Below, piece after piece: positions 23,034 through 23,201 of a stretch of DNA of 64,000 nucleotides. Below the pieces are notes generated by a model, which saw only the letters and a list, made by a program, of their open reading frames with translations, ran no database searches and was not told the origin of the DNA. Location: assembly GCF_003334815.1 (NCBI RefSeq), contig NZ_QOWO01000004.1. One strand, written 5' to 3'. Position numbers and translations under genes: made by a program. Source of the stretch: Escherichia coli (lineage in GTDB: Bacteria > Pseudomonadota > Gammaproteobacteria > Enterobacterales > Enterobacteriaceae). The first letter of the stretch is position 1; every line of letters starts with the position of its first letter.

Positions 23034-23201
23034 TGTTTATTTCCTCTGTTTCCAGTTGCGTTATTTTTTCTACAGCAAAGAAAATTCGACCGGGCCGATG
23101 ATTGAATCTTAACAACAGCGTACGTATGCTAAATATGAGAAATCTCATAGCGGATAAACATCGTGAAAGAAATCCACAATAATGATCTTAAGCAGCAATT
23201 G

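Follow-up and report, generated by a model that had tools for sequence, protein, structure and literature searches.

Which protein recognizes the palindrome found in the divergent region between rihB and yeiL of Escherichia coli, and which genes does it control from there? YeiL, a regulator of the CRP/FNR family, continues to be counted with those E. coli regulators that have no known function or regulon, and RegulonDB, according to one paper, gives it a single site and interaction, at its own gene. The 64-kb stretch of DNA analyzed here (the window), a piece of K-12-type E. coli chromosome, carries the genes in the order yeiI, nupX, rihB, then the divergent yeiL, followed by psuT, psuG, psuK and fruA. 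The features of immediate concern are the following:

20742..21992, minus strand: nupX, nucleoside transporter, downstream of rihB and probably co-transcribed with it in a putative operon
22092..23033, minus strand: rihB, pyrimidine nucleoside hydrolase, divergent to yeiL, probable target
23134..23149, unstranded: proposed YeiL box TATGAGA-AA-TCTCATA with the core TGA-N6-TCA, defined by dyad and conservation (the box)
23163..23861, plus strand: yeiL coding sequence from GTG, 232 aa, CRP/FNR-family regulator, defined by the PGAP start, the conserved N-terminus and NF007707

The dyad upstream of yeiL

The sequence ATGAGAAATCTCAT is found at 23135–23148, where a palindrome ATGAG-N4-CTCAT had been predicted, and is part of a larger perfect dyad of 16 bp (TATGAGA-AA-TCTCATA, 23134–23149) that has 7-bp arms and a 2-bp centre (7+2+7). 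Adding 2,232,152 to window coordinates gives those of NC_000913.3, in which the box occupies 2255286–2255301. Its predicted distance of 15–55 bp to the two candidate starts of yeiL is also right, the end of the dyad being 14 nt from GTG 23163 and 54 nt from ATG 23203. Within the box, TGA (positions 3–5) and TCA (positions 12–14) are 6 bp apart (TATGAGAAATCTCATA), which is the geometry of CRP/FNR-family dyads.

The window has a single exact ATGAG-N4-CTCAT where 0.09 would be expected, a ratio that measures the rarity of that one sequence only. Palindromy alone is no basis for a claim since perfect 5-N4-5 dyads number 90 in the window versus about 63 in shuffles, and perfect 7-2-7 dyads 9 versus about 4. 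Short dyads are common as a class and the signal beyond chance is conservation. Note that the window contains no second box with up to 3 mismatches to the 16-mer, so that an operator serving the whole nucleoside cluster, as first proposed, is too broad a reading.

Conservation of the box

Within the species, a 30-mer with the box at its centre is found once and without change in 5364 of 5426 complete E. coli genomes, unlike the intergenic bases near the box, which vary. For comparison across species, 80 loci with a yeiL ortholog were picked from a one-genome-per-species collection by alignment of YeiL, whose identity goes from 97% down to 43%. They span Proteobacteria, Firmicutes and Fusobacteria. 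The loci are from Escherichia, Citrobacter, Buttiauxella, Phytobacter, Salmonella arizonae, Klebsiella, Hafnia, Pantoea, Enterococcus, many Lactobacillaceae, Lachnospiraceae, Clostridium, Sebaldella, Cohnella, Peribacillus and Pelosinus. In 79 of these 80 loci the yeiL ortholog is directly preceded by the 16-mer with 0–3 mismatches (mostly 0 or 1), the sole exception being a locus whose upstream DNA is just 13 nt long. There is one box per locus of about 10 kb, and the few extra matches with 3 mismatches in about 780 kb are close to the number expected by chance.

In the alignment anchored on the box, all 80 sequences agree on A2, T3, G4, A5, A7, T10, T12, C13 and A14. At position 15, 46/80 have T and 34/80 have C, and the central pair consists of A or T. 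The information content of the box reaches about 29 of 32 bits, versus 0.1–0.9 bit for each flanking position (80 sequences). This conservation is not a remnant of recent common descent, because it is sharp inside scrambled intergenic DNA and the adjoining proteins are 43–60% identical.

The reverse test, in which metagenome contigs were scanned for exact TATGAGAAATCTCAYA, yielded at least 120 stretches with a match. Among the 120 matches listed, 21 are followed, at a distance of 14–136 nt, by the start of a yeiL-like gene. This leaves 99, of which 75 fall within open frames of 100 aa or more, the pattern expected for random coding matches, and the remainder are without promoter context. The matches listed tie the box very strongly to the gene and give no hint that the regulon is large.

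The YeiL protein and its start codon

The RefSeq annotation of MG1655 starts yeiL at ATG 23203 (219 aa), while PGAP records start it at GTG 23163 (232 aa). The GTG is the likely start, and the 232-aa form probably the real protein, because the first 13 residues that it adds (MKEIxNxxLKQQL) are kept in orthologs as far as Enterococcus and because the YeiL model of NCBIfam, NF007707, aligns from residue 1 of this form. In three loci (L212 at 1180, L215 at 386 and L080 at 4950), an ATG within the box leads gene callers and lists of open reading frames to give the regulator frame a spurious N-terminal extension.

YeiL carries the Pfam domains PF00027 (cNMP_binding) and PF13545 (HTH_Crp_2). A structure search found no YeiL structure, and the nearest solved structures are CRP-family proteins. 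The recognition helix of YeiL, SYRHLLYVL, presumably aligns to ETISR in FNR. It also aligns to SRETVSRVL of the Thermus thermophilus CRP-family protein 4ev0, and its base-contacting positions differ from those of 4ev0, in keeping with a distinct box. Neither the helix nor the box varies in YeiL proper, and a protein combining a cNMP-binding-like and an HTH_Crp domain is encoded beside the box in 79 of the 80 loci. Cysteines 81, 104, 106 and 129 (in PCFIGE, CWCLAL and LC) are likewise invariant in YeiL proper and are not kept in more distant relatives. YeiL has been placed among the iron-sulfur regulators (PMC7671543), and the four cysteines are consistent with the cluster reported.

Genes adjacent to the box

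The divergent neighbour is rihB in 49 of the 80 loci, with a RihB identity of 69–100%, and a gene for a NupC-type transporter follows rihB in enterics as well as in many of the Lactobacillaceae. Among the other loci, of Clostridia type, those that were checked have a divergent gene that mostly codes for a SAM-dependent methyltransferase of about 210 aa, and they retain the box. Some loci without rihB have a divergent gene for an MFS transporter, a membrane protein or another product, and there too the box is present. The box stays with the yeiL-type regulator and not with the divergent neighbour.

The E. coli RihB is 69–78% identical to that of enterococci and lactobacilli (L027–L053), versus just 50–59% for YeiL, and the divergent layout rihB-box-yeiL is the same. 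This difference in identity, together with the identical arrangement, suggests that the rihB-box-yeiL cassette may have moved horizontally between phyla. In Clostridia and Lachnospiraceae (L054–L084, e.g., L080 3648–4909), the methyltransferase gene is often followed by one for a YczE-like membrane protein. Several Lactobacillaceae loci (L031, L034, L035, L039–L042) feature a short inverted repeat, GTAAGCCCTTAC, that lies upstream of the box by about 60–75 nt, within the predicted leader of rihB, and is absent from enterics.

Predicted promoters next to the box

The 80 sequences were anchored on the box and -10-like hexamers were counted at each offset. On the yeiL strand this gives a sharp positional peak, 64 of 80 loci having a -10-like hexamer 2–4 nt before the box (nearly always 2 or 3), in most cases preceded at 17 bp by a -35-like one. 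The layout in Lactobacillaceae is TTGAAT-17-TACACT-3-box. On the opposite strand, 74 of 80 loci have a -10 hexamer at a distance of 21–22 nt from the box. Most Firmicutes have a perfect TATAAT there, whereas the sequence is TGnTATGAT in the majority of other enterics and TAAGAT in Escherichia, E. coli included. The elements predicted in the window are:

23102..23107, plus strand: predicted yeiL -35 TTGAAT, 17 bp from the -10, hexamer and spacing being shared by Lactobacillaceae and many further loci
23125..23130, plus strand: predicted yeiL -10 TATGCT, 3 nt before the box
23137, plus strand: predicted yeiL transcription start, at box position 4, placed 7 nt after the -10
23106..23114, minus strand: predicted rihB extended -10 TGT-TAAGAT (TGTTAAGAT), overlapping the yeiL -35
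23099, minus strand: predicted rihB transcription start, placed from the reverse -10, with the box centre (23141.5) at about -42.5

The predicted start of yeiL thus coincides with position 4 or 5 of the box, which then spans about -3 to +13 of this promoter. Its centre lies at -41.5/-42.5 from the predicted divergent start, whose promoter has no -35 hexamer at the corresponding place (ATTTAG in E. coli). The same spacing to the divergent promoter is seen in relatives that carry a variant box (L215 and L221). The only match of a simple promoter scan, TAAACA-17-AATAAT (23155–23183), was discarded, being inside conserved coding sequence and not conserved in other enterics. A separate match to the FNR box at 8/10 positions, TTGAAtcttAACAA (23102–23115), coincides with the predicted yeiL -35. 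Searches by coordinate and by gene name in the supplements of Cappable-seq, SMRT-Cappable-seq and Kim 2012 returned no mapped start.

Variation of the box with the recognition helix

A search of 1.84 billion representative proteins with YeiL retrieved 510 clusters at E ≤ 1e-10, with identities down to 26–30%, and the upstream DNA was read on contigs of 12 distant relatives (identity 26–43%). The recognition helix of all sampled relatives begins with SYRH or SYRQ and differs afterwards. The boxes are listed here according to the three helix residues that distinguish them:

LLY: TATGAGA..TCTCAYA (YeiL proper, 80 loci)
LLR: TATGACA-TA-TGTCATA (P0146, P0189)
LLR: TATGACA-TT-TGTCGTA (P0225)
LLR: TATGACA-TA-GGTCATG (P0232)
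LET: TAGGAGA-TT-TCTCCTA (P0165)
LET: TAGGAGA-TA-TATCCTA (P0183)
LET: TACGAGA-TT-TCTCGTA (P0151)
LLH, LMQ: TAGGAGA..TCTCATA (P0129, P0133)

The available upstream DNA of P0148 (LEK) and of P0174 and P0256 (both LLR) has no clear palindrome. In all, 10 of 13 relatives are informative and 3 of 13 are without a clear site, and among the informative ones box and helix vary together. Symmetric changes in both arms that track the helix of the adjacent regulator are the pattern expected of a dimeric operator co-evolving with its protein, and they are supportive of such a relation. The correlation of helix and box also follows phylogeny, in a small sample with few independent lineages, and would therefore be read as support, not as proof.

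The repeats upstream of psuK

Two tandem 18-bp repeats are found upstream of psuK (27211–27228 and 27229–27246). The hexamer CTCATA does recur in them (27211–27246), as the original prediction stated, though it is not conserved in the psuK repeats of other species. What is kept in Citrobacter, Phytobacter and Entomohabitans is two copies of the core RAACACATGTTYA, while the TATGAG part reads CATGAA, GATAAA or TATAAA depending on the species. The further proposal of an operator shared with these repeats finds no support, the conserved core being a different motif. The repeats were rejected as YeiL sites on these two grounds, and they are probably a separate operator through which the pseudouridine operon is regulated.

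About 160 bp upstream of psuK, positions 27300–27315 of the bottom strand have 2 mismatches to TATGAG-N4-CTCATA. They were not retained as a YeiL box as they form a conserved CRP-like site instead, TGTGAGCCTGCTCAAA, which reads TGTGA-N6-TCAAA here and TGTGA-N6-TCATA in other enterics. YeiI (19547–20635), a kinase of the PfkB type, resembles pseudouridine kinase and is extended at its N-terminus by about 55 residues, which have faint matches of the MarR/HTH type. It could be a fusion of regulator and kinase relevant to the psuK repeats.

Proposed role of the box and alternative explanations

The box is very probably the operator of YeiL. The prediction of an operator for this CRP/FNR-family protein, common to the divergent rihB and yeiL, is supported by the way the box follows yeiL genes across phyla, and also by its TGA-N6-TCA geometry, by the symmetric variants linked to the helix and by the fixed spacing to the predicted promoters. 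A YeiL dimer would bind the 16-bp dyad with one recognition helix (SYRHLLYVL) per half-site, YeiL being the presumptive binder, at a single site set between two back-to-back overlapping promoters. A protein bound over +1 normally represses, and a site near -41.5 (class II) is the activator position typical of CRP and FNR. Autorepression is proposed because the box covers the predicted +1 of yeiL: in the arrangement TTGAAT-17-TATGCT-3-box, occupancy of about -3 to +13 would hinder RNA polymerase. Activation of rihB-nupX is proposed because the box centre, at -41.5/-42.5, has the classic class II position, from which the bound dimer would activate, or at least control, the genes for the nucleoside hydrolase and the transporter. 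The whole reading, of a YeiL operator with negative autoregulation of yeiL and control, most likely activation, of rihB-nupX, is judged probable, while each direction of regulation taken singly has an even chance of being right.

The class II reading draws on predicted -10 hexamers, and the divergent promoter of enterics, with its TGn extended -10, may perhaps do without an activator. The rihB gene is described as physiologically silent in K-12 (PMC2898832). Considering this silence and the degradation of the -10 to TAAGAT, the rihB arm of the system may be weak or defunct in this strain. The replacement of TATGAT, found in most other enterics, by TAAGAT in Escherichia may itself help to explain the reported silence of rihB in K-12 (PMC2898832).

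A more ambitious reading, given somewhat less than an even chance, takes the one operator as a two-way switch by which the YeiL dimer would turn yeiL off and the divergent catabolic gene on. Regulator, operator and target would then compose a horizontally mobile cassette, and the variants might spell out a recognition code for a large unstudied CRP subfamily, with helix residue 188 reading bases 6 and 11 and other helix changes bases 3 and 14.

Whether the box serves YeiL or another protein of the same family deserves attention because the consensus sites of CRP (TGTGA-N6-TCACA) and FNR (TTGAT-N4-ATCAA) have the TGA-N6-TCA spacing in common. FNR reportedly represses yeiL, according to the single experimental study of YeiL, by Anjum, Green and Guest in 2000, who are also said to have found the gene positively autoregulated. 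The box might be no more than a weak site for FNR or CRP, and it reads TATGA-N6-TCATA, with 8/10 core positions of a CRP site and with TGTGA in the right arm of about 43% of the orthologous boxes (position 15 is C in 34/80). The likeness does not extend far. As an FNR box, ATGAG-AAAT-CTCAT matches TTGAT-N4-ATCAA at just 6/10 positions, and as a CRP site it has A in both half-sites in place of the first G of TGTGA, a base contacted by CRP. The inner GAGA..TCTC is invariant yet outside both consensus sequences, the box is kept in Lactobacillaceae, Enterococcus and Clostridia, always beside a yeiL-type gene, and its variants change with the helix of the adjacent regulator. A real CRP site exists inside the yeiL coding sequence (CGTGATAAAGATCACC, window 23655–23670), for which Footprint-seq gave an in vitro CRP footprint at 2255813, and the main text of that preprint includes this site among its CRP sites and not the box (PMC12871828). 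Binding of FNR or CRP in place of YeiL is accordingly held to be quite improbable. Two readings dispense with a bound protein altogether. The predicted yeiL transcript starts inside the box, and its leader could begin with a hairpin (6-bp stem, 4-nt loop, -5.2 kcal/mol) that might affect stability or translation. Such a hairpin is rejected for want of covariation and of an Rfam match (none at E up to 1): among 64 distinct sequences there are 0 compensatory changes, the A2:U15 pair is broken (A.C) in 27 and G6 or C11 changes alone. The fold has a z-score of -1.58, the left arm would have its first 3 bases upstream of the predicted start, and the subfamily variants keep the DNA dyad including the pair A7/T10, which is impossible in the hairpin. 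This leaves an RNA element with a very slight probability. That the palindrome has no function at all, as the abundance of short perfect dyads in the window would allow, is refuted by the comparative data, namely by the information content that the box retains across phyla versus randomized flanks, its strict association with yeiL-type genes and its fixed spacing to promoter elements; the chance left to it is practically nil.

With YeiL as the presumed ligand, the signs of regulation might still be reversed, YeiL activating its own promoter and/or repressing rihB. Anjum et al. (in 2000) are said to have observed lower yeiL expression in a yeiL mutant, in line with such activation. The promoter-like TAAACA-17-AATAAT lies downstream of the box in E. 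coli, and repression would fit the silence of rihB in K-12 (PMC2898832). However, the downstream match belongs to coding sequence and is not kept in other enterics, the conserved -35/-10 pair puts the box in a repressor position over +1, where simple positive autoregulation fits poorly, and on the rihB side, where a -35 is lacking, the centre at -41.5/-42.5 is typical of an activator site. Reversed signs are thus considered unlikely, though less so than binding of the box by FNR or CRP.

Significance of the box

A search of the literature for the motif sequence and for the YeiL regulon found no description of the box and no EMSA, footprint or ChIP for YeiL at it; RegulonDB, RegPrecise and the article by Anjum and colleagues from 2000 were outside the scope of this search and may record it. 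The box would be an operator of a known kind, the CRP/FNR type, and the site of this particular regulator was not found described in the literature searched.

A defined box names a likely direct target of YeiL, rihB-nupX, in the scavenging of pyrimidine nucleosides, and it supports the longer YeiL that begins at the GTG. With a box of 16 bp, tests by EMSA, ChIP and reporters become straightforward and sites can be searched for genome-wide. The box is common to lactobacilli, enterococci and gut Clostridia, so that an experiment in E. coli informs about a family present in many gut and food bacteria. The variants of helix and box provide a natural series for the study of specificity in the CRP/FNR fold. 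The mechanism envisaged is conventional; what the orphan regulator gains is a defined site, together with a probable target, natural specificity variants and a correction of its start codon.

Comparison with known CRP/FNR-type systems

One close parallel is to class II FNR boxes. Both are dyads of 14–16 bp with a TGA-N6-TCA core for a dimer of the CRP/FNR family (YeiL being the putative binder here), and the YeiL box has a predicted centre of -41.5/-42.5 at a promoter without -35. Like FNR, YeiL has conserved cysteines, four of which are invariant in YeiL proper. In contrast to the FNR box, the YeiL box differs at 4/10 consensus positions and has a specific, invariant inner GAGA..TCTC, and unlike the global FNR, YeiL would have a local regulon of one site as far as observed. 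With the CRP site the box shares register and spacing (TATGA-N6-TCAYA), the right arm reading TGTGA on the bottom strand in 34/80 loci. It departs from that site in its left arm, which is always TATGA, in the fixed positions of its N6 and in being kept in bacteria without CRP.

Local regulators of the CRP/FNR family that have boxes of their own include CprK (dehalobox TTAAT-N4-ATTAA) and FLP of Lactobacillus. As in these systems, the YeiL box is a subfamily-specific variant of the dyad located beside the gene cluster of its regulator, where it is proposed to control a dedicated catabolic operon. The YeiL system differs from them in motif, in effector and in targets (nucleoside hydrolase and transporter, or methyltransferase), and in having a single site placed so that it could serve two overlapping divergent promoters.
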